Origin: Ruditapes philippinarum
Lineage: Eukaryota
DNA length: 64,000 nucleotides
NCBI RefSeq assembly: GCF_026571515.1
Contig: NW_026853675.1
Coordinates: 62,001 to 126,000 of the forward strand
Direction: 5' to 3'
Shown: positions 19,901 through 53,900 of the stretch, piece after piece
Position numbering within the stretch: position 1 is the first letter of the stretch
Layout of the letters: the number at the start of each line of letters is the position of its first letter
Notes under the pieces: model-generated
The model's database searches: none
What the model was told of the DNA's origin: nothing
What the model saw: the letters and a program-made list of their open reading frames with translations, nothing else
Made by a program: the position numbers and the translations under genes

Positions 19901-22900
19901 GTTTACAGGTTATTTGCGATTAATTAGTGATTTTGGTGTACCCATTATGTACAAGAAATACTTAAAAAAAAAATTTCAAAAGCTTTTTAATTTTAGTGTA
20001 CTTTATCAATTTCCAAAATGTTAATTGTCGGTAATTTACCTGAATTCTCTTTTTGGCAATAAGTATAGTAATAGTGATTAAGTACTATGTATGGAAGTCA
20101 AAATACTACTTTATTTACACTTTGCAATTTTTGTGACGAATATTTTTCCATTTAGCGCTCCTTTTTTAAAAAAAAAAAACAAGCATCTGACAAGCTCTTA
20201 AGTACTTCAACATATTTGAACATTATTAAACTAATGTAGCAGGAAAAATATTTTCGTTCCTTAGGTATTATGTGCCTTTAATTCTTAAAGTTATTAAATG
20301 CCCTTGTTGCCTCAAAAATGCTTTGAATTTTATTTCTCAAAAGCTTTTTAGTTTTGATGTCCTTTTTACAGTTTTCATAAAATTATTCATTTGCCAATTG
20401 CCTGAAGAGTTTTTTTTTCTCTCTGATGCTTTTTTGCAATAAGTACAGTTATAGCGAATGAGTATTTTTAATGAAAGCCAAAATACTACTTTGTTCACAT
20501 TTTACTTCTTTAATGACAAATTATTTCAGATTTATCGCTACTTTCTTCAGGTAGCAATCATCTAACAATCTCTAAAAAACGAGAATAAAGATCAACGTTC
20601 ACAGGACGCAGCAAAAACCATTATTTAAACATTATAAAATTCATGTTTGCCCTTTCTAAAGAAGTAAAACTTTATTTGTTCCTAAGGTACACGTGTCTTT
20701 CACTCTCAAAGTTATTAAGTCACCTAAAGGAAGGAATTATTATGTCAAAACTTGTTTATCTTATTCTACGGTGTTTCTCATTATCTAAACTTAAATGCTT
20801 TCACTGAATTATTAATTATTTTAAACCTACACCATTTAGGAAAAATAGTACAAAATGTTAAAGTTCCGCAATCGATTTTCCGATCTAATAAGAAACACGT
20901 ACGATAAACGAGATAGAAAGCATAATGTTCTTCCCTTTTGTGTAAAATGGAAAATACATTTGCATATTTCTTTATTCATAAAGGGGCATGATTCCTTGTA
21001 AAACTGAATACATGTATTTGAGCACATGAATTTGAAATTTATTATTTCATTAAACATAGGTCTGTGTATTGAAGAAATTTTATAACATTACCATCTAAAG
21101 GCTGTTTCTAACTATATCGTTACAATAATCATCTCTCTTTTAAAAGTATAGTTCAATAATATTTCAAATTAAGCATCTTTAATATAAAATTAAAGTGACA
21201 ATAGCAATGTTTGTTTATTTTAATGTAGATGTTGATTTGGCGATGCAAGTGACTGGTGGAGAAACACCGACAATTTACCTGGATGGAATAAACTCCCTAA
21301 TGACAGCTTTGTCCGGGTCTAATGTTGAGGTAAAAATCTAGTTTTTTATTGACGTATTAACATATCAATCAGTAAACTTTGTTTTCAATATGATAATTTT
21401 ATCGTGAATTTAATTATTTCTAAAACTCGATCAAATAATAGAAGTTGCTTAGTAATAAAATCAAAAACAATATATTATTTACGTTAGAAGTGTTTTATTC
21501 GTATATGAATTCCGTCTGTATCAACCAATATGATTTAGATTTTCAAGTTTTATATTTTATGTTCATTTCAAGACAAATAAACAATTCCAAAATATTTGAC
21601 TATAAATTATGCAAAGTAGGAACTTTGAAGTAGACTGTAGTTCGCGTGGACATTGCAACCGTTTTTCTTTTTCCGGAACAATGTAAAGAATTGAAGTGTT
21701 CCATTAATCAGATTTTATACACACATTTTAGGTGGTGGCCAAAAACCTAGGCGGAGACTTTCAGGAATTCGTGACAGAGGAAGGAAAAGTGCCGCTCGGG
21801 ATATTTGCTGCAGCGTTCGTAACAAAATATCGTAAAGGAATGCCACTCACAGAAACAGAATGTCTGAATAATGTCAATCATTCAGTACCAGAAATTACTG
21901 ACAAAGATATCATTGTTGCACATGAACTATTCACTGGTAGTAATAATCTATTTATAAATAATTGTAGTTATAATAAATAAACTCTTTACAAATATATTCT
22001 TGTATAAATATGTAATTACCAGTATATTGTTAATTTCAGTGTATGAAGAAAAAATCTTAAAGTGAAATTCTAAAAGGTTGACAAAAACTAATTCTAACAG
22101 TTATTTTGACTGTGATTGATTTTTTGGTAACACTTGATAGTAATCTTGTTATTTCATATTTTGCAGCCAATGCTGACCTGCCATCAACAAAAATCTCTGA
22201 CCTAGTGAAGTTGAATGACGATGAACTGGACATTTGCGGTCTGTAATAAAATAATATCTTGTGTTTTAATGTTAATTTTATGATATTTGTCTTCCAATGA
22301 TGTATATTACTCACACTTTAAATTCATAGAATTAAACGGCTATATTTTTGATGTAGATTTATCTAACAAAACAAAAAGATAGGTAACTGTAGTGTTGTGA
22401 ACTATGCATTGCATTACAGCTAAGAGATAACAGGCGGAATACAGGCATAAATATTCTACCGTATTTGTAAAGACTTAACTCAAAGAATTCGAAAGGATAA
22501 CTGTTCTTTCATTTCTGAGATTTGAGGTAGCTTTATTTGGTGAAATATGTACATGTATGCAATTGTATTTATGCACTTTTTGGACTAGCGGTAATAAATT
22601 GTACATGGCAGCAGCAGATGATCATAAGATAGCAATTAAGACTTAAGTAAAATGGGTACAATCTAATATAGCTACAATTACTGGACTTTTATTTATTTAT
22701 AATTGTTTATACTGCCAGAATTATCTTTTTTGAAGGATTTTTTATATCTATATACAGGTGATTATGTGTTAGTACTGCTAATTGACGTTCTGAACACACT
22801 AGGGAACGAAGGAAATCGCTGCAACAATTTTGTTACTTTCCGTATAAATTCTACGAAAAAATGTGATTCAGGTATGAAAAATATTTTTTTACAATCTTAA

Positions 22901-25900
22901 TGTAATGCTTGATTACGATTACAAGATGTACAGCACTTGAACAACTTCCGGCAATACAATATTACAACAAAAGCAATATGAAAACTTAATTAAACATTGC
23001 AATTGTAAAATACTACAGTACACTGAAAAGCTTTCTAACAAAACATTAAGCGATGCATCTCAATTATGTGCAAAACATTATGAAAAGATACAGCGCAGAA
23101 CTAAATGCAAAATGAAATGAATAAAAAAATTAATTTCTACTGTTTACAGTGTTGTACAAATCATAGTAAAAGTGACGTTATTCAGTTGAGCAAACCGTTT
23201 ACATTTTCACATTAATGTTGTTTTATTATTTTTGTTTTATCTCAACAATGTACATCGCGCTTGATTACGGAGATAAATCTAAATGATGTTATAAAGTACT
23301 AGTATCTTTAAAAGTCATGATTTTCTATCAAAATCAATTTTACCCTGATATAAAGTAATTCTATCCATGTATGTTGCAATATCGAATTTTTAAAAATCTT
23401 TATCAATGACCACCATTTCAAGTATAAACATTATATTAAAAGTAACAGCAACTGTGCAAAAGAGAACACTGCAAGATCATTTTAAAGAAATATTTCCATA
23501 CGAAAATATTTCAAATAAGCAATATAACGTTATTTTTTAAGTGCATCCACGTTGTGAATTGATAAGGAACGCATGGACTGATGGTGAAGCACGAATTGTT
23601 TATAGAGGTAAACGTGACACGACAATGGAACCGTATGGGAAGTCATTCTCATTTCAGGTATATCTCATATAACACTATCTTGACTTTAACTTCTACTTAT
23701 TTAGATAGTCGGAGAAATTACTTTGATAAAGATTATTAATCAAATTCTTTTAATGCTTACCTTTTTTCTCTGAGATGAGGAAACGCTTTTGTTTTAAATG
23801 GTTATCTGTATATCTATTAATTTCACAGACATTTTCATAGGCCATGAGTTATGCAAATAGTTTACTGAAAAGTGAAAAGTTTCTTTTCTTTTCAAAGAAT
23901 GATATTATGTATACATTTTGATGTCCTGTTTTAACACCAACGTTAGTGGTAAAGAATTTATGCTCATAGCTACATAGGTATTTTTGATTTCAGGACGAAA
24001 AACTAGAAGAAGTATACGAGAGCATGCAAGAGAAGATGTACATGAAAAATGCATATGGTCGGTTGAAGCTTCTGAGACATTACATAGAGAAACTCGTTGA
24101 AAACAGTCCTGGATTATGTACCGGTAAGTTAAAACATTTATATAAGTGTTATTCTGTGGTTATAATAATAAAGTTAATTATTGGATCGGAATTTCCCAGT
24201 TTTGATAAACATTTTTTTTTAAATCTTGATTAAATAGAGAACAAACATTTAACACTGCACATATTTACATTATTTTGCTACATTTGCAGAGTCATCTGAT
24301 ATGGTACACAAAATGGAAGAAAATGCAGATGACAGTGTCGTACCAGAGGAAAATGAGCCAACACTACCAAGTTCAGTTCTGAACGTTATTGAAAAACTTA
24401 AACAACTAAGCGATCCAAGTGTAGTAGGTTTAGCTTGTTTTATTGTATTAGGTAACTATAGGTACCTGTTCATGGTCAAGGATTCAGACCAAAAATTGAC
24501 AATAATTAGATATACCTGTTTTACGTAACCAGTAAATATTTAGCCATTTAATTTTATAATTATATAATCATATGTGAAAGGAAAAATATACTTAAAGTGG
24601 CATCATGCCCATCTGTTGGTAAATGGTCGGTGAACTGGTAAAAATCAAAATTTGACGTTTTGCATCGTGTTCAATTTTAAATTTTATCATGAAAAATGAT
24701 CAGTAATTCACATTACCGACGGAAACGTCTATAAACAGCTTTCGAATATATCAGATCGTTTATATATTGTATCATATACATTTTTCAATATCAATTAGTG
24801 GTCAATTATCATTTTAATAGTCAATCTTTAAAAATATATACTGAACATGACATTGTAACCATGTCACTTTAATAGGACATCAATATATACTGTTTATTCC
24901 TATCTTTATTTTCTTATTTAGATATTCAAGTTAGATATGAAGTTCAATTTATTTAGCTTCAAATGTAGCTTTAGATTATCAGAAAATCAAATCCTCATTA
25001 GTATTATCATTATGTTTTTGAATTGAATTTATCCAAATTCAGTTATTGAATGGTTTACCACAGTTGTCAAATATTCATTCACAGGACAGTAGTACCATTG
25101 TTTTGGAATTTGAAAATGCGCTCAAACAATTAGAAGCTCAAACTACCGTTGGCAAAAACCTTTATGAAATGCTCGTGCATAAAATGGAAATACATGCGTT
25201 GGGAGAAGCATTACATGTCATATCTGAAGGTGGCTCTACTACGGACACTAGTTACTGTGACTTACCGGGACGTTTTGAAGAAATGCAATGGAAATACACA
25301 GATGGTCAAGACATACATGAAGATATGTTCAATCTTGCAGGTGATACTGTTTCGGCCTTTGTCAGTAATCCTGGCTTATCCTGTCTGGAGAAAATTCTCA
25401 AGCGTTTTCTAATTTTTGCTGAAAAGGCTGATGCAAGTGAGGTAGTCGATCCCGCGTATCTCACAGCTGACGAAGAATCGGTTGCTAAAGAAGATGATCT
25501 TAGACATTGCGCAAAACCAAGCAGGTGTATCAAGAAGCTGCATAGAATGTGTAACGCTAAAGACATTTCCATATGGCAGGAAATTGACGAAGAAAGCAAA
25601 TCTGAAATTTGTAAGATGTATGTGATGAAGAAAGTGGCAAGGGAAAGTTTTATGACATTGGGTATGCCGGATATATACAACAAAATGAAACACTACGATG
25701 ACGTACGTAAGTAGAATTTTATTCTGTTTGTGATACATTGTGTATGCAAATTATGAAAGTGGATTCTGTTTTACTCTATTTTATTGTCACATCCGTGTTA
25801 TTTGTGCCGTGTGGCGGCTGTAAAAAGTCTCCCCGTACATTAAATTAATGATGTTATATTTTCGATCCGTGAAGATCGTTCAGCACGACATTTTTGTTGT

Positions 25901-27290
25901 GTATACATTTTGGGTGGTATTTTTGGTTTCTTGTAATTGGCCTTTTTCAACTCGGGTGGTTCCAGTGTTCCTACTTATATCCTGTATAATCACCCTCAGG
26001 ATATGTTGCCTGCTTTTTAAATTTATCTTTTGACGTCTTGTCTGTGATATACAGGCTTCATAACCTCAGATCCCTTTTCAAAATTCCATTTTATTTAGTT
26101 TCGCCCATTGTTTTCTCGTTTAGGGCACGCGCATTCTTTTACTAAGGGAACATACGCCGCTTTTCATGGAATGACACTACTATGTCATATTGAAGGTTCC
26201 ATGATAACCGCCGTATGAACACATCTGCGGATGTTTCCAAATTCAAAACAGTTTTCTTAAAGGATTCTGTTTTACTCTATTTTTAGTGGTTAACCCGTCG
26301 GACTAGTGACCGAAAGATCGCTCGCTAAACCCAATCAAGGGCAAGTCGTTGTTTCTTCGAGCTATAAAACTTAACACTCATTGCTCAGTACTGGTTGGTT
26401 TCCAGGAACGGACTCGAAAGTGTGTCTATTTCCTTATAGCTTCCTACGAAATCAAAGTAAGAACAAAACTAAAAAAGAGGAAACTGAAATCCCCAAAGAA
26501 CGCCAGTAGAATGATGCAGTTTTTCTTATTGTATATGCGGATTGCAAGTTAACAATAGCACCAGATATTCATAAGAAAGTTAAGCTTTTTTAAATCCGAC
26601 ATTTAGAATTCCTAATAACTTAAAGTTAGTAATATCTGTATGAAATAATAAATATATATAAGAAGCTCGATCAATTCAGTTGTATTTTTATTCAAGAATT
26701 ATTTCATTATTCATGACTTTCAGAATGTAACCGGGATCCTCTAAAGCCAGATCAAGCCGGACCTCCAACATATTGGAAAGAGATGAGTAAGTGTATCTTT
26801 TTAATAACTAACTGTCAAAAAAACAATAAATATTTAGTTTAAAAGTAAATAAAATGATATTGATAAGGTCTTAAAATTGTTCTACGTAATTTTCAGTAAC
26901 ATTCAAAATGATGATTTAAAGGTAAAGTTACTAAGGGTAATGGCAGGAGAACAAATATTGTCTCAAAGGTAATATGGAAAACATGAGCGATACTTGTTAA
27001 CAGAAATGACCGCCACATGCGATAAGACATCTGAAAATATTTACCATAGTAACAAAATTTTAATAAAAAGAGTACTTTACCAGTCTAGTTCTTTTATCAT
27101 CTTAGCTGAGAATGGACGGAAATACATTATGCATGGTATGATGAATGAAGATGCTTCGAAAATAGCTTGGCGCAAAAAAGCTGTATGCAGCTGTACAGAA
27201 TGTGTCGCAGGGGGTATGACCGGAGAGTCTGGCGGTGAAACACCAACTGAAGGTGGGAACGATGGAATGATGCGCAGGAGGAGAAAATAG
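13973..27290 (+). CDS. Gene A: uncharacterised secreted Cys-rich protein, 749 aa, 15 exons (paralog 1 of 3)
   Basis: Exons: 13973-14060, 17707-17765, 18652-18784, 18955-19050, 19435-19524, 21229-21329, 21732-21936, 22167-22238, 22758-22871, 23542-23657, 23994-24123, 24290-24423, 25043-25706, 26724-26786, 27106-27290. All introns are GT-AG, phases are consistent, and the total of 2250 nt has no internal stop. Signal peptide MWSKTVFSVACYGLFSVICA. AATAAA directly after the stop. Exon-by-exon similarity to genes B and C. Confidence 0.88.
15735..16115. repeat. Interspersed repeat in gene A intron 1
   Basis: Direct similarity to 2590-2780 and inverted similarity to 25990-26245. Confidence 0.75.
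18178..18358 (+). mobile_element. Degraded tRNA-derived SINE followed by A-rich tail
   Basis: GGGGCCTCCG head and ...GGTCTTCTTCCATCAGAGAAGCTGGAAAGTCGCCAT body, reverse-complement-similar to 4450-4610 and 47218-47420; (GAAA)n/polyA at 18388-18445. Confidence 0.6.
19979..20725. repeat. Diverged tandem duplication (~360-390 bp unit) in gene A intron 5
   Basis: Paired blocks AAGCTTTTTA, GCAATAAGTA.AGT.ATAG, CAAAATACTACTTT and TTCCT.AGGTA...AAAGTTATTAA each occur twice in the same order. Confidence 0.6.
25783..26261. mobile_element. Insertion flanked by a 22-bp direct repeat (target-site duplication), containing an inverted copy of the 15895-16115 repeat
   Basis: GGATTCTGTTTTACTCTATTTT at 25761-25782 and 26262-26283; long TSDs are typical of TPRT-mediated (non-LTR) insertion. 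Confidence 0.65.
26284..26475 (+). mobile_element. CORE-type SINE remnant
   Basis: Degenerate tRNA-like head (AGTGGTTAA), then ACTTAACACTCATTGCTCAGTACTGGTTGGTTTCCAGGAACGGACTCGA resembling CORE-SINE body, then an A-rich end. Confidence 0.5.
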
Positions 27291-30200: not shown

Positions 30201-31894
30201 TATAATAAGAGGTACTTTGGTTTGTTGCATAACTGTATCAATGTGTACCTTCAGTGAAAATGATAGTTGAAATGACACAATTTGTATTATTACAGTAAAT
30301 ATTTCAATTGATTTAAGAGTATTGAATTTAAGTATAAGAACTGATTTTGATTTTTAGATTGCTTGATAAAATAAGCTAACGTTGGCAAAATTACGCCTTT
30401 GAGACATTTATGGTAAAATGTATTTTTTTAGAAGCTTATAAATGTATTTTACTTATCTGTGATATTCTTGTTTGATCATTTGTTTGTTCTGCAATAAAAG
30501 ATTCTTTGAATGTGGTGTTGCTCGTTATTATTTAATACTGGATAGCATGCTATGTATTGTATTGTTGTAAAAATCTTTGGCAAACACAGAGTAGCTGAAA
30601 ATTTACAGTATTGATTAAAAGGCACAGACGGTCACTTATTTTAGTTGGACATGCTTTGATTTACATTAGAATTGGAAATAGCTAAAACATATTTACTTGT
30701 CATCAACAAATATTTTTACAGTAATAAGGCGATTGTCAATTTTGTAACCAGAAACTAGTGCCAGTCTCTTAGATACTAATGACCGGTAAGAATATTTCAA
30801 CTTCATTAATTAACCAATACCATGTCATTTTCTCAAAGTTCCGAACCGATGCTTTCCACATATTAATAACATGAATATATAGATTTCGTTTCAACGGATA
30901 CAACATTTTAATGATATATCTTTTGGTATGCTGATGGGCAATGGTGACGTCAACAAACGTTATATATTTATTTACATCAATAGTAAATCCAGAAAAAAAA
31001 TTCCATCATATGCTTCAAATACAATATTGTGTGGCGAGATCATTGTAAGTTAACAATGATATATGATCTAGTAGAGGCGATTTGAATTTAAAATTTACAT
31101 TTCAATATTGAAAACATGAAAACACTATTAACTAACAGTAGGTACCTATGGCAATTGATGGTTTATAAGTCATAATTGCGAATAATCAATTAACATTAGC
31201 CTGAATAAACAGCTTGTATCAGATTAATGTACGTATTTTTTGTGAGTCATTATTATATTGTTGTATTAACAAAAGCCAGAACAGATGGCTGTTTAGAATG
31301 AGCAGTAAATACTTATCTGAAAAAAAAATCTAGAAAGCGGAGATTCATCGATATAATTAAAACAATTTAAAAGTAAGAAGCATATCAATGTTGAGTCTTT
31401 TCATGGACAATATTCCCAAGCTCTGGGCAGTATTCAGTCTCCAAGCACAACTGGCATTTTTGCTCCCGAAGGACCAGGAATATATAACAACAAGGTGCCA
31501 ACCAACACTTGATATCTGCTGAATCATGATCGAGTATAAGTCTGGGTGGCTGTTTGGAATTCACAGATAGAGCTGATTTTTTAATCTTACAAATATGAAA
31601 AATACACACCTAATAGTTTTATGTTAAAATAGCATACCTCTACAAGATTAATTTAATCATTGCAAACAATCGTTAACAACCATTACATACTAATGTGAGA
31701 AATTAAATGAACACAGCAGAGACCATAAATTGATAATAACTAATACTATTGTGGAAATATCGAGTATTGCCTGGCAATATTACCTAGACCTGTGGTAACT
31801 AAGGTAAGTTGTTTATGTAATTATTATTATTGCTAGTTGTTCGATTATTGGTCTCATTTGAGTCAGTGGTCACTGGTCACTGCAGACATAAAAG

Positions 31895-34800
31895 ATGGCG
31901 CGTACTGGTAATTTCAGTACATACCTTTGTTTTATAATGTTTGTGATAGGAATAAATGCGCAAGGTATTGTAATAGTATTTAATCCTTAGAACTCTGAGT
32001 TGCCAGCGTTATACCGATGCATTATTCATGAAATCGGCGATATAAATAGTGTCTTAATAATATTTTCTCTGCATATTTCATATTATATAACACGTGTAGT
32101 TTGATATACCGAATATAAGAATCAATAATGTGATATATGCGTTTATTATGTTCATAGATATCAACAAAACTTCAGTTCGGTACAAAGGTCATTCTCACGA
32201 ATGTTCATAAAAGTAAACGTTTTTTTCTGGAAATATATTTCATGAGGTTAAAAAAAATATTTTAGCAGCCTTATTATGAGCCAGTTCATGTCTTCCTTCG
32301 TCTTGAAATCAATATATTTTGGTTCCTTTTCTTGCGGTGACCCTCGTTTCGGCCGCAGATTTGCAAATTTCTTTGTTATTTTTACATTTTTTATATTTCT
32401 TGCATTTTAACACCCCATTTCTTTTGAAAACTAAGCTTCATGAAAAATTCATTCATTGTTGTTTCAGCATAGTAATTATATTTTCATTCCATCAACTATT
32501 ACTGTATCAGTTATTTTCTTACATTGCGTAATTTATTTTCGACGATTGCAGAACATACGTTTCTACAATGATTATTATTTGACATACATTGTAAACTTTA
32601 TTATCTGATTGCCTATAGGAATGAATATGTTGCCCTCAGAAACCTTATTTACTTGTAATATTCATGCATAATAAATGAAGTGACTGGTCAAATGTTTGAC
32701 CTAATAAGCATAGATTTAAAAGTGTTTCAGAGTTCGCAGAATAAAGTGCATTCACACCTGAACAGATGATGACCTAACCTTTAAGTATAAAAGCAAAACT
32801 AACTTAATGGTATAGAAGACAAATTGTTGATGCACAGTATCAAACGTTCTGGTTTATTATTTGACATATAATATAAACACCATAAAAGTAAAGTGGTGTT
32901 TGGCCAGAATTTCTAATTTGTATAAAAATATCATTTTTACTTTTCAAATCTTGACTTATTAATTTCTTATATAAAAAATGTTCATATCACATAAAGGCAC
33001 CACGGGCACCACGGGCACCACGGGCACTCAATGTAATTTATAATCATGGATTAAGTCAACAAGGAAACAAATCAAATTATTTGAAATTTTGAACGGTTTG
33101 ATTTTATTCACTGCCCTGAATATTTGGAATAATGATAAATACAATTTTGTGGCAGGTTGAAATGGTGTTCATGATATGTTAACATAAAAAATATATATAT
33201 ATGTAAGTATACTTGTTATGACAATTTTATGTTACAATTAGAATATATAAAACTCGCTCATAACAGGCATTATATAAATGTTGATGCATTAACCTAATAA
33301 AGGATATTTGTCCGTCTTACTCTATACAAATGATGTGTACAATATATATTTAAGTAATGAACATACAAAAATGTTTGTTAGTTAAATATGTTCTATAGAG
33401 CAAATATCAATATGCATACTTATTGTCAACTAGTTATTTCAATTAGTAATATTTTTTATTTTTTTATTTTTTTTTAGCATTTATGAAACTTGCCGGAAAC
33501 AGGCATTATATGAATGTAGAGGTATTATACTGTGCTTGTTATAATAATACATAAAGATATTTGTATGTCTTATTTGTTGGATTGGGGCGGGTTGTGTGCG
33601 GTAGCGCTGGATGTGATATTTACACGAGTTGTTAAGACAAAAGTGTAAATATAACAGCTGGTGCGGGCGGACAGAATGTGCTTTTCCCTTACATGTAAGA
33701 TAAACAAGTTAACTACTGCTTTTGTGCTTGTGTGTTAGGTCTGAGAGACTGATTTTTGCCATGTAATGTCAAATATTTGAAAAATATTACATTAAATTAT
33801 GAAGTAACATTGTCATTATATGTATGTTATCTGAAAATTTTCTCCGAATATTGTTAAGTGTTAAAAATAATATCCATCTTCTTATGTAACACTATCTTCT
33901 GAGAAAAAAAAAATTTGGAATTTGTTTGGGATATATTTTTCTCATTCGCATTCGAGCAAACATCAGGCATAATGAAAAATATAAATGATATATGACATTG
34001 TGATATGTCAGATATAATTTTCATTTTTGGTCTTTGCGAAGCATATGGATATTCTTATTAGGTCATGAAGTTCTAGTCACTGGTGTTATTAATTTGTGCA
34101 ATCAATAGCACACTTCGTAAGATGAAGTAATGCGAATAGATAGAGTATGTCATAATCAGTATTAAAAAATAGATCATGTTTATAACTATACTTTTACTTA
34201 GAGATTTAGAAGCATACACGATTATAACAATATGTTAGTACATTGTATGTAGTAATAATTTTCAACATGATTGTACACTGTTTAAAATGTTGTCCTCATG
34301 GGCTTTTGGCCTTCAGGATATTTTATGAAATAAAACTTTGAAACTTTGAAACTATGTTACAATCGATTTATACAGTGTCAATTCTTTTCTCTGAACGTAA
34401 TACAATAGTGTGGAGCTTATAACTCGTTGACAAGTCTTTAAAGTTTTAGGGGGAAAATAATTTCAAAAATGTAACACTGTTTGTAATAACATAAAATGGC
34501 TTGTTTTAACAACAAAATATATGGTCTATATGAAGTATATAGATATTTTTCCTGTGAGCTCAAATGACAACAAAGAATAAATGTTTGAATTTGCAAATAA
34601 ATAGTATAGGAACATGGGGAAATTCTGAGTAGAAAAAGATCCGCCATAAGGATAGGGGGCCAACGGCAAGCGGCAATTGTTGTCTTACCTGGGACAATTA
34701 ATGCTGCTTTGCTTATATTGCTGCGATTTTATAATTCCGTGCCTCATTTTTATCATTGATTGACGAATATTTCATGTGTAGTCATTATAATTTATAGATA

Positions 34801-37800: not shown

Positions 37801-37916
37801 TGATATGATAGTCCGTTGCTTTTAGATAATGCTTTTTACCCCCTAAAAAATGCTACCCCCCCCCCAAAAAAAAAAAATAAATGAATAAATAAAATGATAA
37901 TAAAAAATAATGATAC

Positions 37917-37972
<56 letters not shown>

Positions 37973-40900
37973 GTAATAATAATAATGGTAATAATAAAAA
38001 TAAACGTTGATAAGAATTTTATTGGCAACACGCGCATGATGAAAATTTAAGAGTCATACAAAACATAATTATTATCTTCATTTATATTAAGGAGTTGACC
38101 TGAAACTAGAGTTACAGACACCTAATGGCCTGCCATACACACAGAGTAACAATACCACCCTCTACATCGACAATATAAATACAACCAGTGATCTCTTTTA
38201 CGCAACAGATCTTGCCAATTTAAAGGTAATCCGCCACTGTTTGGATTATTGACAATTGTGTTCGTTAACATTATATTGATATTAATGTAATGGGTATGTT
38301 CATTGTATCGTTTCACTATATAAATATAACTTTGTGGTGACTTTTGTATTGCTGGTTAATATTGTGTTAAATACTTGTCTGCATTCATAGAAATAACCCT
38401 AAAGTAAGTATAAAAGAGGCTAAAGTATCTAGACTTTATTTATTGAAAATATTGTTTTCGCAGCAGGCATGCTTGCTTTGAAAACAAAATTTATTTCAAT
38501 AAGAAAACTTTCTATTAAATTAGATAAGGTATAAATGTTTATGTGTCTGTATAAACAAATTAAAAGTTTATCGAATATGAAAATATCGTCAGAATTTGTT
38601 CTGCTCTTATATTACTTATTTTTATAGGTGATCATGTACTTCATTGTTGAGAAAAAGTTAGAATAATAATACATGTACTAATATTACCAAATACTTAATC
38701 AAAGTTATTTGCAGATAATTGTCGATGGCAGCATACCGCTTCTCGATCCGGCAGACACGTGTATATTTGCCATTGCTTACCTTACTAAAACACATGGAAT
38801 ACATCCAGTACCTAGCAACCAGCATTGTACAGAAATGGGAATGGAAACCAAGGTTCCAGAGATGACTTACTACGACAGTCTAATAGGGGTCCCTATTTGC
38901 TTATGTAAGTGATGTTTTCTTAATTTTCCCTACATTTATTTTTTATATGACGTGAATTTGTTATGCAATAAATATTACAAAATGTGTCATGCTTTACAGA
39001 GAACACAATGACGAAAGAATATTTGAAAAAAAACTATACCTGTTTGGTACTTTAATATTGTTACTACTGCGTCTTTCGTTAATACATGTATGTGCTATAA
39101 GTGTAATGTGCGCGAGAGAACGTGCCACAGTCTTGGAAACAAAAACATATATTCCTATCAGATCTTACTGACTGTATTTCTTTTAACCCATTACTTCATG
39201 AGCATTTTGTGAAAAATGGCTTTTTTCATTGAAAAGTCTCCCGTTACAAGTTCAAATTGTTATAATACTATAAAAAATGCCTCAACACTAATCAAACTTG
39301 GCACAAATGTTGACTGGACCATTGCCCTTGCAACAACATGCTCAGGCTTAAATTACCATGGCAACGAGGGGACATCTCAAAATTGCCAAAAATCACTATT
39401 TTGCGTTGATTTTTTCCATCAAAATTGATTTCAAAGTGCTGCAACTTCTCAATGGATTGAGATAGAGTCAAATGCTTTTCAGCGTTGCTTACACGTTACC
39501 TTATGATCAATCTGGGGTCATTTATAGCCTCTCACAAGTCCAAAATTTTCTTGGCGATGAGGGGGACTCCGCCCCCTTCAAACCCCCCAAACAGAAGGGG
39601 GCACATCCCCCTTCTGGCAACCCCCTGATGTATCTTTTGGTTGGGGGGCCGCGCCGAAAAAGAGGTCACTTTTTTTAACAACATTTCTCAAACAAAAACA
39701 AGTGTTGGGGGCCTAAATAAGGCATTTTTTCACCATTTGAGACAACAAAAAAGGGGGGGGTGAAAAAGGCGTTAAAAGGCGTGTATATAACGTAATGGGT
39801 TAAGAAATAAATAGTAAAATAATGTTCATAATGTTCAGGTGTAAAAAGTGTGCGTATAGCTCAATAATTCTTCATAACTCGTATAGTAATCAACTTTGTG
39901 TGATGTTTTGTTTTTCACATTTCAGCCAATTTGAATAATGGAGGAGACTTGTTACAGATGATAAAAGAAAGTCACCAGAATCTCAGTGTCTGTGGTATGG
40001 TGAAAAAACAGCAAAATAACATAACCTTAAAAATGGCCTATTATCTTATATAAATATGTTTGGCTTATCATTAATATGATATTTAACAAATATGCATATA
40101 TTAAGAAGCACATTCACTGTAAATGAAATGTAACAATTGCAGGCTAGGTATCTTGTGAAGTCTGTACATAGGCGCCCAGATATCTTATATTTCCAATCAT
40201 TAAAGATGGCTAACACGACATTGTTTTTGATATTTTTCTTGTCAATAATGCCGGAAGGTCACCTGCTATTTACATTTATCTTTGATGTTTGTCTGTTATA
40301 TACCGGCTTCAAAACATTTGGTCACGTTACAAAATTTCATTTATTTATTTCTGCAAATTGTTTTCTGATTCTGTGTTAGGGGCGTGGACGATGGTTTTCA
40401 ATTACCCTTACTGTTCTGTAGGAAATCCTGGTTTTCTTTATTTTATTTCAATTTATATAAGGCAGCTATAGGTAAGTAAAGGAGAACCTTAATTTGATTT
40501 ATCAAATGTCAAATGTATGAGCCATGCTTCAATCAAGTGAACTGCAAAAGTATTTATGAGAACTCATAACTGCTCCTGGATTGAGTCTACAACATATAAA
40601 TGTCCTTCATCTTTCACATCCCTGTTTAAACATTCCTGAAAAGAATCATGTTTTGAATTTTTTTTTGATTATTTTTATGTCCTATTTGTTGATTTTTAAG
40701 ACTTGATTTTTATGATTATTCTTCCAGGACAATATACCCTTGTTATTCAAGTGGATCCATTGCATACCTTGCATAACGAGATGAGCAAATGTAATAACTT
40801 TATAACCTTTGACATCTATATCAACTGTGGCATGTCACACGGAGGTATTACAAAAGTCGGCATTTTTTATTTTTAATATAAAAAAAATTTCATAGAATGT

Positions 40901-43900
40901 TCACTAAAGTTCATTCTTTATTGTCTACAAATATCAGTCTACAAGTACGCAACTTATTTTTTAACTAAACAACGAGACAGATACACTTATTGCAGGTCAG
41001 TAATATATTACTTACGTTTTTCTATGGGAAATATAAGTCTTATAAATAACATGAGCCGCGTCATGACAAAACCAACATAGTGCGTTTACGACCAGCAATT
41101 GATCCAGACCAGCCTGCGCATCCGCGCAGTCTGATCAGGATCCATGCTGTCCGCTTACAAACCCTAAACAAGTAGAGAAACTGATAGCGAACAGCATGGA
41201 TTCTGATTAGACTGCGCGGATGCGCAGGATGGTCTGGATCCATGCTGGTCGCAAACGCACTATATTGGTTTTGTCATAACGCGGCTCACATATTTGTTTT
41301 GAAGGCATGGCACCTGCTACATGCGAGATAATGATGGACCCGTTTGGAGGAAGCCCGCATCAAGAGATGTTCCATACTAGATTTATATACCATAAAGCCA
41401 ACCATAATTATTCGACCTCTGAAACATTTCACAATGTTCGAATGTTTAGACAGGCAAGTATAATTCTGTTTAGTAAGATAATAATGTTAAATTTAAATAT
41501 ATGGATTAATGAAGTCACATTAAGTCTCATAATCAATAAAATTTAAACTTGACAGAAATTTCTTGATTGAAAACATTACTTTATCTAGTTAAAACGTGAA
41601 ACAATGAAAACCTTAAAATGGTAATTTTATTCGAATGTTGTTGTTACGTCAATTGTATTACCTTCGTTGTAGATCTAGTTTGTTCTTGAAATGCTCCATC
41701 TTATAATTAATTAAAAAATATAACAACAAAACAACATAGTAATTGGTTTAAACATATTTTATTCGTCACATAAGCATATTTACATACATGATATTTCACA
41801 TCAAAACAAGTAAAGATTTAGACTGGAAGCAACCTAATGCTTATTTAAGTCTTTTCCCATTAATTGTGTAGCAGTTAATTCGCAAAAGGCATAATAAAGT
41901 AGATAGCAATTTGAAACATACTAAATGTGAACATGAAATGATCCTTGTTATAAAAGATGTTACTGAGCGGTAGTAGGATGAAAAACATGTACATTAATAA
42001 ACTCTTAGATAATTGTGCTAATATATAAAAGGTTAAAAAAAATTCACATGTAGCTCATCACTCGCAGACAATTCGCTAGAATTTGATTTATTTTTCTTTA
42101 ACGTTAACCAGTCACAAGGCTTGTTTATGATTGTTCACTGGCGTATACACCAATGATTTCATTTTAAGATAAATTATGTCTTTAAAAAAGTTAGGATATA
42201 CAAACCAAGATACAATACATATGAAATAAAATCCATTGACTCACAAAAAATCAACATAAGACATTTATGTTTTAATTTTGACTTTGACAGGAGAAACTAC
42301 ATTGGATGGAAATCCATAATAACTACATAGAAATGCATGATGGCCGTAAATCAAGATCCGATCTTCTGAAAGTATTCAAAACATATATAGAAAACAAGGA
42401 CATTGAGAGCAGCTGTAATGATCTTGGTATGTTAATTATATCAAAGCAAGTTTTATACATTAGAAATCCATCGGGACATATATTTTCCAGATACAAGTCA
42501 CATTCGGTATTGAAATAAATTTATTGTTTAAACCAATATGATAAAATGTCATTTAAATCGAAACATTGACTTTTATATAAATGTGAACAACTCTAAAGTT
42601 TTGTTTTGTTACGGTTGCTAAGAAATATACAAATATGATATACACATCTAAATGTCACTTACTGCAATGCTGCAAGAAGTTTGCGCGTAATACTGACTAC
42701 GTATATGCTACTAAAAATAAATTCTAAGGTGTCTGGCTGTCTGCATACGATGACTATTTTTTCTGAAATAATGATTAGTTCATTTGGCTCAGCTAGCTAT
42801 TTATGTCATAGAAAATTTTAATTTTCCAACGTTCCTTTAAATATGAAAAGAAACAACATTTATGAACATTACTGTAATAATTTCAATTTAAGTGGGTGAC
42901 AGTGACATTCAAAATGCTATATCAGAATTAGAAGGATTAAATGAAGATTTGCTGAAAGCCAGTCAAGACATTAGCATAGACTTGCTTGTGCCGGCCTATG
43001 TGACAGCAAAGGAGAAAATGGATCTGATGAGCAATTCTAAGGTTTACAAGTTTCTTTCACAAAAATGAAATTGTCTTTAACTGTTTTAATATATATACAT
43101 GTATATATAAACGTTTACATTGGCATTTAGAATCAACGTTATGTTACAAATGGTTATTTATTTTAGTTGAATTGTTTTACTTCATTAATACATAGATCTA
43201 TATGTTTTACAAAAATTATATTCAATTGTTAAAGGTAATGAAATATCATATAATCTGTTGCAAATATAAGTATGAAAAATTGACAATAAATTAATATCCT
43301 CGGTCCTAGAAATGTTAAAACTTTCCGAGAATTTCATGTTTCGTCTTCCATTAAACAGAAATGTAGCATTGTTTATTAACGACAACATATGAAAACATAC
43401 ATTTGTATACTTTAAAAATACAGCAACTTTAATCCTAAAAAGTTTGCATCAGAAGTATCGACACTGGAAATAGCAATCATGTGGTGTGCATGTGTTGTTG
43501 TTGTGGTGTTGGTGATTTTTGTGTTATATTTAAATAATAAATTGTTATATTTGAAGGATTATAATGGCATTGCATCAGATGTTGAATCATTAATACGAAA
43601 TATGGTTGATACTGGCATCAATAATACATTCAACGAACGTGTAAAATTCATGGCCGCAGTAAATGCAATGAATGCAACCTTGGAGCTGGCCACTGCTCTG
43701 CAGTCTGGCGTCAGAGAGATGGACATAAAGATGCATGCACAGATACAAGCTTGTGAAACTGCCACCTGGTTAGAATATGTCCCTATGATCATTATGGGAC
43801 TGAACGACTTCTACAACCCCGAGAGTCAGAAAAATGGAAAGGAAATGTTGATGAATGTCGTTGGAAATTTAACAAAAACAGTACTTTATATGCACCATTT

Positions 43901-45139
43901 ATATCCTGAATTTACTTGCATTGAAGACGTCCTTATCAATATGCTGAGCTATGCAGAAGAGTGGAGCACAAGATCGCCAGAAGAACGGGGCAAGATTGAC
44001 CTTGACTGGATGTTTAGTGTGGATCAGGTATACAGTTCGAATGAGCATGATTTAAACCATGCTTTGTTATGCCATTAGTAAAATGATATACAAAATAAAT
44101 ATTACTTCGGATACATAGTTCTGAAATCTTAACAATCCGTGATAAAAATATTTAAACAGCTCGTTGTGAGAATATATAAGTAGATGCATTGATTTTCATA
44201 CAGTTATTAAACAGTAATATTTTAAGATATTTATCAGATGAGAGGTATGAACATTCTTGTTTTCTATCACAAGGTGAGGGATACGAACGAAATAGTCAAT
44301 GAGAAAGTGGCTTTCAGTGGATGTAAGTTAAAGCCTAACCAATGTGTAAAGAAGTTACAGACAATGTGTCTAACCAGCCACATGACATCAAGTATTCCTG
44401 TAATGGATAGTAAATACGAGATTTGCAGAGCAAGATATCTAAAGCAGCAAGCTGAAAAGCATTTCAAATGGTTGGGAATGAAATATAGACACGGAATGAA
44501 TGATGGTATGTTATGCCTAGATATTGAGGTATTGAATAAGTTCTATATAAAATTATTAAAGTACTTGCTTAAAAGATAAGACAATAAAGAAAACATTGCC
44601 ACCTTTGTTTGACTTTTGCAAATTTACATGTTTATATTGAAAATATACATGAACACTTTTTCTGCTTAATGTACATTTTGTTCGTTTTAGATGAATGCCG
44701 CAAAGACCCCTTAGCCCCAAATAAAGGACCTTTGACTCTGTGGAAAATGAGTGAGTAATATTGAGTTTATTTTAGTTATCTCTTTCATTAAGAATATAAA
44801 GTTTGCGATATGTTTGTATTTTTTTTTTGTAAAACAGGCAAAACACGTAAACAGTATTGTTTGTGCAAAAAGGAACAGATACAGATGTATGGTTTATGGC
44901 AAAATGTGTGTCTTATAACTTATGTAACAAGTTTATTAGATTATTTTTCTTTCACGAATGAAGAATATTATATAATTTTGTATTTGAAATTTTGTGCAGA
45001 ACATGAACCTGTCGGGAACGGAGATGGTCAGGTCATTTACAGAGGAGTGCCAACACTAGACAACAAGCACATCATGTGGCAGAAAACGTCCGTCTGCACG
45101 TGTGAGAAGTGCTATGATAACGCCAAGAAAAGAAAATGA
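31895..45139 (+). CDS. Gene B: uncharacterised secreted Cys-rich protein, 785 aa, 16 exons (paralog 2 of 3)
   Basis: Exons: 31895-31964, 35915-35985, 36699-36855, 37176-37292, 37535-37630, 38092-38225, 38715-38904, 39926-39994, 40728-40844, 41305-41453 (GC donor), 42291-42426, 42893-43041, 43557-44027, 44274-44505, 44691-44750, 45000-45139; 2358 nt open. Signal peptide MARTGNFSTYLCFIMFVIGINA. Same intron phases as gene A plus one extra intron. Confidence 0.86.
37905..37996. repeat. (AAT)n microsatellite
   Basis: Imperfect run of about 30 AAT-type triplets; explains the poly-Ile pseudo-ORF 37843-38037. Confidence 0.95.
39187..39799. mobile_element. Non-autonomous piggyBac-like element in gene B intron 7
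   Basis: TTAA|CCCATTAC ... GTAATGGG|TTAA: TTAA target duplication, CCC/GGG termini, 8-bp perfect TIR, interior more GC-rich than the flanks. Confidence 0.7.
41052..41288. mobile_element. Palindromic MITE, full-length copy
   Basis: TIR TGAGCCGCGTCATGACAAAACCAACATAGTGCG / CGCACTATATTGGTTTTGTCATAACGCGGCTCA; internal inverted CAGCATGGATCC...CTGCGCATCCGCGCAGTCTGATCAGGATCCATGCTG; other copies at 54360, 59871, 61687. Confidence 0.9.
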
Positions 45140-47217: not shown

Positions 47218-47420
47218 CTTTTTTACGTCGCACTAACATTGGAAAGGTCATTTGGCACTTTTAAGCTTTACTAGTGGGAGAAGACCTCAGGTGTCCCTCC
47301 GTGCAATATTTCAGGCACGAACGGGCACCTGAATATAACCATCGAAGTTCCGTAAGCTAGCCGGATAGTTTCCTCACAGGAAAGACTCTAAAATCACTTG
47401 CGGAATTCGGACCACAAGGG
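47218..47420 (-). mobile_element. SINE copy, same family as 4450-4610
   Basis: TTTTACGTCGCAC...GAAGACCTCAGGTGTCCCTCCGTGCAATATTTCAGGCACGAACGGGCACCTGAAT...TCCGTAAGCTAGC. Confidence 0.65.
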
Positions 47421-47906
47421 CATTACATATTCACCGATATTGAAATAATAATATACAATCAATTGTTTCATTATGTGGCTCAAACTTTTAAGCTAGAGGA
47501 GTATATTTAAAACAAAATAATTAAGCAGCGTCTGATCGTCAACAAAAAATAAATTAATTTTAAAAAATCAATTTATATTCTTTTTGGAGTATTTTTCTTT
47601 TTTGCAGCATATTGTCATTCACTAATTTCATTTTCACCATTTTATTACTATAATTTTTATTTGCATTTTTGGATGCGGAATATTGCTACTTCTGTTCTGT
47701 TTATTAATCATATGGAAAGATTCTAATTATCAATAATTAGTTCTTCTGGAAACAAATATGTTTTTAAGTTTGCCTTTTTCTGGAGTCAGTCTCGTTTTCA
47801 GCTACCTGCGTCAGAGATTACAAATTAAAGGGATAAATAAAGACTTCGGCGACATTTCATAAACGAGAAGGTTAGAATAGGTTGTGAAGCTTTAGAATTA
47901 ACTAAT

Positions 47907-50900
47907 ATGGATGGAAGTAATTTATGCCTTCTTGGCAGTGTTTGTTGCTTTCTATATTGCATCTTTTCGGTGCAGAGTTATGGTGGTGGTAAGTTTTCAT
48001 TTCTGATTTCTTCCTAATTTTATATATGCTAATCTTATATAGTTTTAAACTGTCAATGTAAAATAATATAAAGAATGTTTTCCTTTGCTTTATTATACAT
48101 AAAGCTAGCGGAGATGAATATTTGAGTTGCCGTTATAATACTTTAAATTTTATTTCAAAAGTCAATTTGTAAAAGCTATATGATAAATCTATTTAGAACC
48201 GCTAAAATGATGACAATACAAACCACATGAATCAAGGATCTAAGTTTAATATTGATATAACCTTTGAAAGTAAATTAGTACCAAAGGGGTCACACTTTAT
48301 ATTTCTCAGTCATAGTTGCGAAAAGAATATTTTTGTTGCTTATTCAATTCCATTTTGCACTAAAAATTTAAAACCTCTTTAGATAAAAAAAACATATCTC
48401 GTCTGCTTAATTAAACTACCAACATCATCATCAACAACAACAAAACTGGTCCTCCGTCATTAAGAGTTTAAATATTCTAATATCTAAACATTAAGTAAAT
48501 AGCTTAAGAGTGTTCTTACTACGACATCAAAAGTTGGTTCTGAGGGCGTGGTTTGTCTGATATTCGGCAAGATTCTCTATACCTTAAACGGATGGCACCG
48601 ATTTGATAATTCTTGGTCACTAGCGTTCAAAACATAATAAATCCATTACACGAATTTAGCAGGTTTAAGGTAATATCCAACCCGCAATTTTTGATATGTA
48701 ATTTTAATGTTAATAAAGTAAACTCTCATATCGGTTTGCTGAAAAGAAATTTTATTCACATGGATAAGATGCAATTTTTTTTATTGTATAAAGGTCTTAT
48801 AAGACCAATCACTGATTATGGAAATATCATTTATTACCCTGTAACAAAGAAAAATAAACAATTAGTGGAAAATACCCAAAGAAGAGCTACAAGAATCATC
48901 CCTGAACTAAGAGTACTCACATATGAACAAAAATTAAAGGCTTTCTATTGATTACAGACGTCAACGTGGAGATATGATACAAGTTTTTAAACTTATTCAC
49001 AAAATAGACTACGAAAGCCTAATAGTGTCAAATAAAATTAAAATAAAAATGCAAAGGCGTTAAAACGCGAATAAAGGCGTTATTACGCGAATCAAAAGGC
49101 GTAATGACGCGAATAAAGGCGTTATAACGCGAATCAAAAGGCGTAATAACGCGAAAAAGGGCGTTATAACGCGAATAAAGGCGTTATTACGCATTTTGAT
49201 TCGCGTTATAACGCCTTTATTCGCGTTATTACACATTTTGATTCGCGTTACAACGCCTTTTTCGCGTAATAACGCTTTTTATTCGCGTTTCTACGCCTTT
49301 TTCGCGTTATTACGCATTTTGATTTGCGTAATTACGCCTTTTGATTCGCGTAATAACGCCTTAAATTTATTCGCGTTATAACGCCTTTGCATTTTTATTT
49401 TTTTATCTTATTTGACACTATTAGGCTTTCGTAATAGACGATTTTGACTATGAAAAGTTGTTCAAATTATCTGTTACAAATCATGAAATCTGAGGACATA
49501 TTTATTAATTAGAAAAGTTAAGACCACTAAAGGCAATAAGACAAAATTCCTTCTCTAATAGAGTCGTAAACGAATGGAACCTACTTCCCAGTGAAATAGT
49601 TTTATCAAAGAACGTTAATGAGTTCAAATCTAAATTAGATAAACACTGGCAATGGAAAAGATTCAAACTTGACAATATCTATTGAATAGACCAATACCGG
49701 AGCGGACGACAATGAAAACAGCTCTCGAGGGGAATGATAGTCCGTTAGGGGACTAATAAAGTTTCCCATACATCACAAGTATCACACGTATAACTGTATA
49801 GATATATGTTATATCTGTATTTAAGAATTTGCGTATGAAATAAGTACAAAATAAAATATAGTGAACTAATGATGGAAATTGGGAAAACGATAAAATTGTT
49901 GTCCGAACAATGTAAGTAAATGTACTATCGTTTGTTGTAGTTGACGTAAAGTTAGGCCTAACATTCGATGGTGGACTTATGGATGTTGATCCAAGTATGT
50001 TTCCCACAATAGAAGTAACAGAGACTCCTGGACGCAAATCCCTCGCAAATATTATCGGTGATATGATGGTGACACATAATGTGGAGGTAAGCCTTAAATA
50101 TACACATGTAGGAGAAATAACTTGTGATGTCATAAAGTCAAGATTTCATCAGGCAAAAATGTATTTCCATTTTTTTTCTGCGTTTAAAATGTCAAATATT
50201 GATAAAGTTTAATGACACAGAAGACAGGATTAATCATTGTGAATATCTAAATAAAAAATATATTTTGAGTTACATCTTATTCATCATGTAATTAAACTTG
50301 AAACAGATGAAAACGTATGTGAACTTTTTACCAGATTGTTGCTACAGCTTCTCCATTACCTTCCACCGAAACTGATGAATGTTTCTTTGTTGTCGGATTT
50401 CTATCTCCTCTTGAAAGCATCACCGCCACAAAACCGTTCCCAAACAGGCAAGAATGTGAAAAGAACAATCTACTACCAACCATCGGAGTTGCTGACGAAA
50501 TTTTAGGATATCCGCAATGTATCAAGTGTATGTATGAGACAANNNNNNNNNNNNNNNNNNNNNNNNNNNNNNNNNNNNNNNNNNNNNNNNNNNNNNNNNN
50601 NNNNNNNNNNNNNNNNNNNNNNNNNNNNNNNNNNNNNNNNNNNNNNNNNNNNNNNNNNNNNNNNNNNNNNNNNNNNNNNNNNNNNNNNNNNNNNNNNNNA
50701 ATTTAAAAATACTGTTTTATACCTGATATGAAATCTATGAATATTATTATTTATAATTTAATTTAGTTAATATAAATGCTGTCTCTTAAATTGATTGAGG
50801 CAAACACTGTCAGATCAATACTAGGATGAGATCGGACGCGTTTTAATTCAACGTGTATAACGTTTTGTATATGACCATATGCACTGTCTGTACGTAAATA

Positions 50901-53900
50901 TGCTTGGGCTTATAAGCCTTATTTGATTGTAATAAATTGTCTGCCTGTCTAAATAATCCACTGAACGAACAAAAAGCGCGGTGACATGATATATCTAAAT
51001 CGTATTGGATTATGTATATCGTTTAGTGTCCTCTGTAATCAAATCAAACAGTTCAATGAAAGCTTTGACTTAAAATATTTATATAAAAAAGTATTTTAAG
51101 TCCCAAATGAAAATATTATGAAAAATATAATGAAAAAGTAACAGTGCATATTTTGCAAGTTTTGAATCCGTTTTTTTTTTTTTTTTTTTTTTTTTAATTA
51201 TGACACTAACCGTCATATATACATGTACATATATACATGTTAATAAACGTATCAATTTTCATACTCATTTTTGCTATTAAAATCTACATATAAGTGTATA
51301 GACAATAAAGAGTTATTCGGCCTGTGCACTAGTTATGTATAAGTTTAACTTAATCAATCTTTCAGATGCAGACCTTGAAAATAGTGATTTCACTAAGTTG
51401 ATTGGAGAACACGGCCGTACACACTGTGGTAATTAATTTGTTTTAGCACTGTTTATTAAATATTAAAAAAAATATTTAATGGATAGATGTAACTACTTTA
51501 TCACAGATTTGTACCCGAACGGTGTACAAAAGTAATTTCTATCGGCATACCCATGGCAGGCCTGTCGCAATACCGATGCGATTCAATAATTGTTGTTTCT
51601 AGAAGAACAAATTAAAGATATACACTGTTGATATCATACCGTTCAAGATTTTATACTTACTACATAGGTTACCACTTCAATTTATGTTTCTGGTAAAAGA
51701 AATGTGAAGGACAAGTTCTAAAATTCTCAAGGAGATGAGAATAACTATTGACAAGTCATTTTCATTTGAAAAAAAAATATACTCATGATTCTTAACAATT
51801 AGCAATATGTGAAACCCGTTATTAAAGTTATGGTGCTTTTACTTATAAAAAGTGATTCATCTATTTAGTTGTTTTATCTAAAAGCGTTTTTCTTGAGCAC
51901 ACTTTACAGGTTTTTAATAATTGGTATTTATCAGGTTAGTATTTATAGTTAACATATATAAATTGTGCAGGTATGTACCGTTTGGTGGGTATGTTGGATC
52001 CATTACGGGAGGTTCAAGGTGACACAAACTTCTGTAACAACTATCTTACGTTTGATATCAACTTTAACTGCTCCATTCAAACAGTCACGGGTATGTTACT
52101 TTGTTTTGGAAATTAGAAACATCGTTTACTATCAGTACAAATTAAAAGTACTCAAAGTTTACGTAAGCAAGCAAGACAATGGAAGATATTAATAATCTAT
52201 CGCATACTACACCCACAGTAATTTCAAAACAATCGGATAGCTCGTGTTGTTAAATTAAGCGTACAATAATCTTTCTTAAAGTCTCTTGATGGCTTCAATA
52301 ATTTAGTTCTCTGTATGAAAAGAAATAAGATAATGCAACAACTGCCACATAAAATACGCTAAACTTTCAATATGAGGTGCTTATTATTTAGTAGAATTTA
52401 ATTGTCAATATATTGTTTTTCTCAATGTTGTTTTGACATGACCTTGACCTTACGTCCTCCTACAACTTGAAGTGCAGAACAAAAAATAAAAAATACATAT
52501 GTATTTTCTAAAATACTATCAATAATGTTTTCGTCTTGTGATATTTCACAGTTAAAAATACAGACGAATACAAAAATAATGTCTATAATTGCTTAACGCC
52601 TTTACTAATGGATAAATCATACTATGACTATCAATGCAGTAAAACCACTCACATTTTATTTTATAGAGCCTACTTGCGATTTGCTCCCAATGGAAACCGA
52701 AGACGATGACGTTACATTACTCTACATGAATCACATGCGGACTGAAGGGGTGTATGGTCAACCAAGGAGGTTCAAACATGCTATGCAAATGTTTAGACAA
52801 AGGGTAAGTTTCATGATAGGAAGAATATGGGACAGTTTCTGTTATGCTTATGTAAATTTGAAAGAAAAAAATACACGACTCATTATCAAAATGCTAAATT
52901 GTTGAATGCAAGCAAATTGTTTGAATGAGATAATAGATGGTAAGGTAAATTTCAATGGTCGAATTGAACAGAAAAATATTGCAGAACAGGTCGTATGGCA
53001 ATTGAGTGAGAAATTCAAGGGAGTAAACTCTTGCAAACAAAATGGCAAATATAATATGGTCACAATTATTTCCTTATTATCATATGTTTTCATGTTAATT
53101 TTCAAGTCAGATTTAACGACCATAAAATTCGGTGTTAAAGTAATGTACAAGACAGCATCTCATTTCAAACTATACATTGTATGCATATACTGTTAATATC
53201 TTTACACAATTAAATGTTTTAATCTCTAGTGACAAAGAAATACTGGAAAATCAGATATTGACTATTTGTTATTATCCTCCGTTAGGCAATGTCTCCTGAA
53301 TGGAATGAAGAGTATGAAAAAGACTATGATGTAGTTGGAAAATATGGAAAGATGTTTACTAAAATAATGAGAGCCTATATTAAAGGACTTCCGAAGGAAT
53401 CTTACCTTGATGATTGTTCCAGGGAAAATGAAAATGGTAATAATAATTTACACATAAAACAAGATACTAGGAATTTAGTTTACCAAAATTTGTTTAACTT
53501 CAAGTCTCACAAAGTTGTTCTAAAGCCCAAAAAGTATGACACATAATGTTTTCCTTTTTTTTTCTTCTTTAGTAAGGGCAAACATAAGTTTTATAACATT
53601 GAAGTAATATTTGTGGAGCATACTAGATGACTACTACCTGAATACATAGGCGCTGAATGTAAAACTATTTGTCGTAAAAGTTAAGAAATAAAAACAAAGT
53701 TAAATTGCCTTTACAAAATGCTCCACACGATAAGTGTACTTATTGCAAAGAAAAGCAAAAAAAAGCAAAAGATGGTTTATGTAATTGGCCAATAACTAAA
53801 TGATTGCAAACTATAACAGGCACGTAATGATTTATTAACGCCACTAATAAAGAATGTTTATAAAATGAAAACATGTTTATAAATAGCTAAAGAATGGGTA

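Follow-up and report, generated by a model that had tools for sequence, protein, structure and literature searches.

The 64,000-nucleotide window analyzed here, taken from contig NW_026853675.1 of the clam Ruditapes philippinarum (positions 62,001 to 126,000), carries three intact tandem paralogs, genes A, B and C, which share ~23% pairwise identity and each encode a four-exon module resembling the CARDB domain, an otherwise tandemly repeated immunoglobulin (Ig)-like sandwich. Intron phases agree exon for exon among the three genes; gene B has one additional intron within its long exon, and gene C is without exons 2-5. The features to which we refer below are:

13973-27290, plus strand: gene A, 15 coding exons in an open spliced frame with all introns GT-AG; 749 residues, with an N-terminal hydrophobic signal-like segment and the ending MRRRRK
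17707-19524, plus strand: gene A exons 2-5, encoding the first Ig-like beta-sandwich, which gene C lacks
21229-22871, plus strand: gene A exons 6-9, CARDB-like module (21229-21329, 21732-21936, 22167-22238 and 22758-22871)
22808-22828, plus strand: gene A predicted calcium loop EGNRCNN, from sequence and a pattern test
25043-25706, plus strand: gene A long exon, helical Cys-linked region
31895-45139, plus strand: gene B, 16 coding exons in an open spliced frame; 797 residues, ending AKKRK
31895-31964, plus strand: gene B exon 1, the best signal-peptide candidate of four
38092-40844, plus strand: gene B exons 6-9, CARDB-like module (38092-38225, 38715-38904, 39926-39994 and 40728-40844)
40778-40798, plus strand: gene B predicted calcium loop EMSKCNN, whose middle ligand position is Ser, from sequence and a pattern test
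47907-58311, plus strand: gene C, 11 coding exons in an open spliced frame; 727 residues, with a signal-like segment, an acidic tail and the ending YRKK
49941-52090, plus strand: gene C exons 2-5, CARDB-like module (49941-50086, 50335-50527, 51366-51428 and 51971-52090)
52021-52041, plus strand: gene C predicted calcium loop DTNFCNN, from sequence and a pattern test
55405-56134, plus strand: gene C long exon, helical Cys-linked region

A preliminary description of this DNA had quoted three peptides as a signature shared by CARDB and lysyl oxidase (LOX). All three lie on the plus strand, and the coordinates given for them (22758-22871, 40728-40844 and 51971-52090) are exact exon borders, flanked by AG and GT and running from phase 1 to phase 1. 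The peptides are the final exon of the module in A, B and C; the Cys codon of their ‘CG’ belongs to the preceding exon, and the Gly codon is divided by the intron. The modules also start as had been claimed, with DVDLAMQV (21229), GVDLKLEL (38092) and VDVKLGL (49941), and each is divided by three introns, in keeping with the proposed intron-split animal domain. The three motif exons match one another in tblastn (E values of 4e-9, 1e-7 and 6e-4) and are the most conserved part of the protein (44%, versus 22-32% in other regions). A six-frame search of the window for G-x-[YH]-x-L-x4-D-x9-13-NN gives exactly three matches, against zero in 200 dinucleotide shuffles, a comparison that shows non-randomness only, as the pattern was derived from the same exons.

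When the long helical exons were made into a four-row profile that excluded the motif, 14 proteins were retrieved among 1.84 billion representatives. Eight are unnamed, and the six with names come from heterodont clams only, where they are annotated as ‘uncharacterized’ or ‘hypothetical’. These full-length homologs are LOC123525082, LOC123525084 and LOC123525832 of Mercenaria, ACF0H5_005548 of Mactra, DPMN_192587 of Dreissena and MAR_037284 of Mya, and the best matches among them share 33-37% identity with A, B and C. In a tree, A pairs with LOC123525832, B with LOC123525084 and C with LOC123525082 (support 96-100%), and the trio is thus older than the split between Ruditapes and Mercenaria; these Mercenaria orthologs all lie on a contig of one and the same length, 104 Mb. 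The exons of the first Ig domain make up a symmetrical cassette, with phase 1 at both ends, that is missing both from gene C (junction 47988/49941) and from its ortholog LOC123525082, which suggests an old loss or gain of this exon block. The one search with the four-row profile suggests that the family is absent from mussels, oysters and snails. Word-based protein searches returned no match for the gene C long exon, one for the full alignment and three already known proteins for the module, and neither family protein P0017 nor the gene B exon had a tblastn match at E<=10 among plasmids. Two protein searches, whose counts are lower bounds, found no further paralogs in the 20 kb flanking each side or in the rest of the genome.

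Proteins A, B and C each begin with a hydrophobic signal-like segment, are acidic (isoelectric points of 5.0-5.4), have no clear transmembrane segment beyond the N-terminus (19-residue hydropathy <=1.61) and are likely secreted. The acidic chains end in basic tails, RRRRK, KKRK and RKK (window 27290, 45139 and 58311), as do most homologs; at least three of the last six residues are Lys or Arg in 7 of 10 family proteins. The gene B model contains a GC-AG intron (41453/42291) at a place where A and C have GT-AG. Indirect support for the gene models comes from the annotated orthologs and from a 773-residue homolog encoded on a contig of 3,729 bases, a length that points to a spliced transcript. 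Part of the gene C long exon is contained in 20 sequencing runs, with no RNA run among those listed. Comparison of gene B with the contigs of four runs gave only repeat-derived joints among the 15 of 137 listed, and one run covers intron sequence.

AlphaFold predicts the module alone, taken from the Mactra protein, as a beta-sandwich (predicted local distance difference test score, pLDDT, 74; predicted template-modeling score, pTM, 0.72). In the full-length model of P0006, the ortholog of B (pLDDT 77, pTM 0.79), the module spans residues 173-352, preceded by the first sandwich (37-172) and followed by strands 361-411, the helical region (420-728) and final strands 751-783. We regard an Ig-like fold of the module as almost certain. 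Ig-like folds fill its hit lists in both Foldseek and VIA, and those lists are headed by CARDB, an Ig-fold family of clan CL0159 according to the accessible text of PMC8416519. In Foldseek, CARDB structure 2KL6 is a weak first (E 0.047, prob 0.75), and CARDB structure 3IDU is third; in VIA, 3IDU ranks first among 48,161 chains (Z 5.6, root-mean-square deviation 3.8, 102 residues aligned), and 2KL6 (Z 5.9) and 3IDU (Z 5.8) take the first two places among 992. An Atlas feature search, which we use as a lead only, gave PF07705 in 8 of 9 listed rows (score 0.81-0.84).

Sequence motifs point in the same direction. The C-terminal CARDB motif G-x-Y-x-L-x4-D...E...NN is present in all nine family members that have the exon. 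The N-terminal (P)DL motif, a consensus of 103 bacterial repeats, appears as D-L or D-V in seven of eight intact module starts and as N-L in the other, with Pro absent, and a global alignment places the D-L start, [AG]-[YF]-L-[TS], D..[IL]G and the end motif in CARDB order. A hidden Markov model (HMM) of 103 bacterial CARDB-type repeats picks the motif exon in P0017, P0006, A and B, with scores that are exceeded by 1, 0, 2 and 6 of 500 shuffles, respectively; in the reverse test, the family HMM gives at least 5 bits in 4 of 103 bacterial repeats versus 1 of 2,060 shuffles. The module thus fails formal CARDB membership yet resembles CARDB in fold rank and in motif order, and it probably descended from the CARDB lineage.

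A calcium site had been proposed in the D...NN loop, and here the module follows the spacing of LOXL2, whose calcium ligands are D549, L550, E722, D724, N727 and N728 (PMC5899467, available part). At the E722-N728 ligand loop, the LOXL2 chain reads GDYLFQVVINPNFEVAESDYSNN. The corresponding pattern [ED]-x-[DNS]-x-x-[ND]-N sits 22 residues after the Gly in all nine members having the exon, six of which are homologs found through the helical region alone; it has one other occurrence in the ten proteins and arises in 0.2-3% of shuffled segments. The middle slot holds Asp or Asn in eight of the nine, and the strict form of the pattern is found in 45 of 103 bacterial CARDB-type repeats. By general Ig topology, the loop joining the final two strands shares one end of the sandwich with the first strand. 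Judged on these residue patterns, a calcium site in the module is fairly likely, if slightly less so than CARDB descent, and would link CARDB with lysyl oxidase through a shared feature, a relationship that we did not find stated in the literature searched.

The predicted disulfides, also proposed earlier, find support in cysteines that come and go in pairs. Cys238 and Cys292 (P0006 numbering) are both absent in A and P0009, which form one clade, and P0007, which shows the second site only, lacks it too. P0006 and P0017, members of different clades, each lack Cys267 together with the Cys of ‘CNN’, Cys340. Cys318 and its predicted partner just past the last strand, Cys352, are retained throughout the family. 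Such paired gain and loss suggests three disulfide bonds in the module.

Several results weigh against a calcium-binding CARDB relative. First, profile methods offer little: Pfam and NCBIfam match no family member, a Pfam scan of 17 single exons, 9 homologs and 15 module rows recovered neither CARDB nor Lysyl_oxidase at E<=10, and the module does not reach the CARDB (PF07705) gathering cut-off of 22.7 bits. The bacterial CARDB HMM gives nothing above shuffles in six of ten proteins (C, P0005, P0007, P0009, P0010 and P0014), and hhalign assigns a probability of 9% versus bacterial CARDB-type repeats, over the last two strands alone, and of 0.2-0.5% versus the CARDB repeats of the same genome. 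Second, the N-x-G that follows strand B in CARDB is replaced in the alignment by G-x-[VL]-P or similar; V-x-N-x-G is present there in 86 of 103 bacterial repeats, and a loose regular expression for it matches 4 of 10 family modules, irrespective of aligned position. Third, the structural scores lie under the bars of the tools (E>0.001, with nothing at E<=0.001 in Foldseek; Z<8), and hexamerin, T-box and other folds fall within 1 Z. Finally, the alignment of the family has little depth (10 proteins), the ligand pattern was widened to allow Ser in its middle slot once gene B had been seen, and the calcium-ligand and disulfide assignments come from sequence patterns. The proposal of a CARDB-like Ig sandwich is partly supported, in its structural part by the predicted fold, the top-ranked solved structure and the Atlas neighbors, but not by Pfam, and weakly by profile-profile comparison. 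Sequence searches of solved structures with the family returned nothing relevant, but these blanks say little because a control bacterial repeat annotated as CARDB also missed 3IDU.

The strongest competing explanation takes the module for an ordinary sandwich of Ig-like or macroglobulin type, whose likeness to CARDB arose by convergence at two edge strands. The confinement of sequence similarity to the last two strands would then be expected, Z-scores are level with those of unrelated Ig-like folds, and E. coli alpha-2-macroglobulin (A2M) is second in Foldseek. We nevertheless consider convergence unlikely, because CARDB leads each of the three structure rankings and most of the Atlas rows, the motifs keep CARDB order in the global alignment and the ligand spacing is exact.

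Somewhat less probable again is an origin by decay of a lysyl oxidase catalytic domain, with loss of enzyme activity but retention of the calcium clamp. LOXL2 (5ZE3) ranks 13 in both Foldseek and the wide VIA search, its Z of 4.8 is within 1 of CARDB, its F-G motif differs in length by one residue, and LOX too is described, in the part of PMC5899467 available, as a sandwich core with disulfide-tied extra segments. Against this origin, the copper-binding cluster WxWHxxHxHxH, which defines LOX activity in the accessible text of PMC4448552, has no counterpart: as noted in the preliminary description for the three genes, the histidines are absent, with H-x-x-H-x-H-x-H in 0 of 10 family proteins, and the module is therefore not a lysyl oxidase. 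Family proteins have neither a Lysyl_oxidase (PF01186) match nor the SRCR domains of protostome LOX; the sole PF01186 match in the genome is its true LOX, on another contig, where the intron apparently falls after G-x-Y-x-L-K and not inside the Gly codon. Moreover, the module is shorter than the LOX domain, and CARDB ranks above LOXL2. Alignment with LOX is too poor for the LTQ-forming Lys and Tyr to be placed, and these residues would have no significance once the copper ligands are missing.

The remainder of the protein invites a comparison with A2M and complement, of which the family could be shrunken, thioester-less relatives composed of two MG domains, a split beta domain and a helical insert like CUB/TED. 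Top Foldseek matches of the whole model are A2M and complement proteins (best E 7.6e-5), the first sandwich (P0006 37-172) matches Ig/MG-type sandwiches at Z 7.2-7.4, including A2M MG domains at 7.3-7.4, and strands 361-411 and 751-783 enclose a helical region of 309 residues. We regard such kinship as very unlikely: TM-scores are 0.13 with 8-9% identity, the matches cover the two sandwiches only, no A2M-related Pfam match exists, and CGEQ, the thioester motif of A2M and other thioester proteins, is found in 0 of 10 proteins. The strands flanking the helical region (window 23544-23657, 45000-45139 and 57953-58311; P0006 361-411 and 751-788) may form one split beta domain, and P0006 Cys362, Cys737, Cys783 and Cys785 are invariant. 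For the helical region itself, structure searches, none of which used the region by itself, listed no match to TED, to a pore-former or to any other known fold. A secreted helical complex of three components, defensive or pore-forming, with the sandwich as targeting domain, would suit three ancient paralogs that have stayed in tandem in two clams and that all contain a helical bundle, but is highly improbable given helical matches that are nonspecific (Z<=7) and the lack of any 19-residue segment with hydropathy above 1.61 beyond the N-terminus.

On balance we lean toward a diverged CARDB-like sandwich, present in three paralogs, that likely binds a single calcium ion, acting as a structural clamp and not as an enzyme, within a likely secreted protein. 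In such a protein, calcium would be gripped between the first-strand Asp-Leu and the loop E/D-x-D/N-x-x-N/D-N that joins the final two strands, as in LOXL2, and lineage-specific insertions would be fastened to the sandwich core by up to three disulfides. The stiffened sandwich could serve as spacer or as binding surface N-terminal to the helical domain of 300 residues, and the basic tail at the C-terminus could anchor the acidic protein in polyanionic extracellular matrix. A matrix or adhesive role, the least supported step, is tentative and in our judgment falls short of an even chance. Further still from the data, CARDB and the LOX core may share an ancient calcium clamp on which heterodont clams built a non-enzymatic secreted matrix family, comprising the stapled clamp and an unrecognized helical domain, with the paralogs as calcium-dependent parts of a clam-specific structure such as shell, periostracum or mucus; we offer this as speculation that is unlikely to be right.

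The disulfide-stapled, single-copy CARDB-like domain and its clam family are apparently undescribed. We found no paper on the family by identifiers or peptides and, among the titles listed, none on an animal CARDB family, in a search that did not extend to subscription shell-proteome papers and bioRxiv supplements, where these proteins may appear; family identifiers are absent from the supplements of PMC9781830, PMC8902148 and PMC9210306, although other annotation numbers may be used there. The present analysis offers initial clues to structure and mechanism for a conserved family of clam genes listed as uncharacterized in databases.

Around the trio, at least three likely secreted EGF and Thr/Ser-rich mucin-like genes lie just upstream of gene A (window 242-1878, and L025:715-1293 and 8420-8992, all on the minus strand). 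Downstream of the window, plus-strand exons from L026:983-1408 to L027:2891-3193 resemble, in their translation, a gene for an inositol acyltransferase of the PIG-W/GWT1 kind. Copies of an abundant short interspersed repeat lie at window 41050-41300, 54355-54480, 59870-60070 and 61690-61900, the first copy being very deep in all four runs compared. Intron 1 of gene C contains a palindrome-rich tandem repeat (49060-49400) that is found on contig C4476 too.

More broadly, finding a CARDB-like domain in an animal is less surprising than it would otherwise be, as the same genome has canonical CARDB repeats in an intron-containing gene. A PF07705 search of the genome listed only contig C4476, where a minus-strand gene at ~159600-183400 (L006, L008, L028-L030) has Ig-like exons and at least six canonical CARDB repeats and continues into YD/RHS-like repeats, an RHS-core-like motif and a tail. 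A second copy lies near C4476:110000-117000, giving two tandem copies of a bacterial-type CARDB-RHS architecture in an animal. Since canonical CARDB repeats were already in the genome, the trio shows no new horizontal transfer. The C4476 repeats and the module share a genome, an intron-containing gene and the CARDB end motif. Unlike the module, however, the C4476 repeats pass Pfam (E 7.9e-15) and score 17-74 bits each with the bacterial CARDB HMM, versus <=10.8 for the trio family, and no profile similarity between them and the module is detectable.

Among known systems, LOX (PF01186; human LOXL2, 5ZE3) shares with the module a beta-sandwich core, the D-L plus E-x-D-x-x-N-N ligand pattern and disulfide-tied insertions (PMC5899467, accessible part), whereas the clam module has no copper His triad, SRCR domain or Pfam match and apparently a different intron position. 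CARDB (PF07705), as represented by 2KL6 and 3IDU (Pyrococcus furiosus PF1109; 3IDU is titled as a di-metal complex), provides the top-ranked solved fold, the D-L start and the G-x-Y-x-L-x4-D...E...NN end. In contrast to the ~110-residue CARDB domain, which occurs in tandem repeats, the clam module extends to ~170 residues through insertions, carries up to three predicted disulfides, is interrupted by three introns and occurs as a single copy in each protein.

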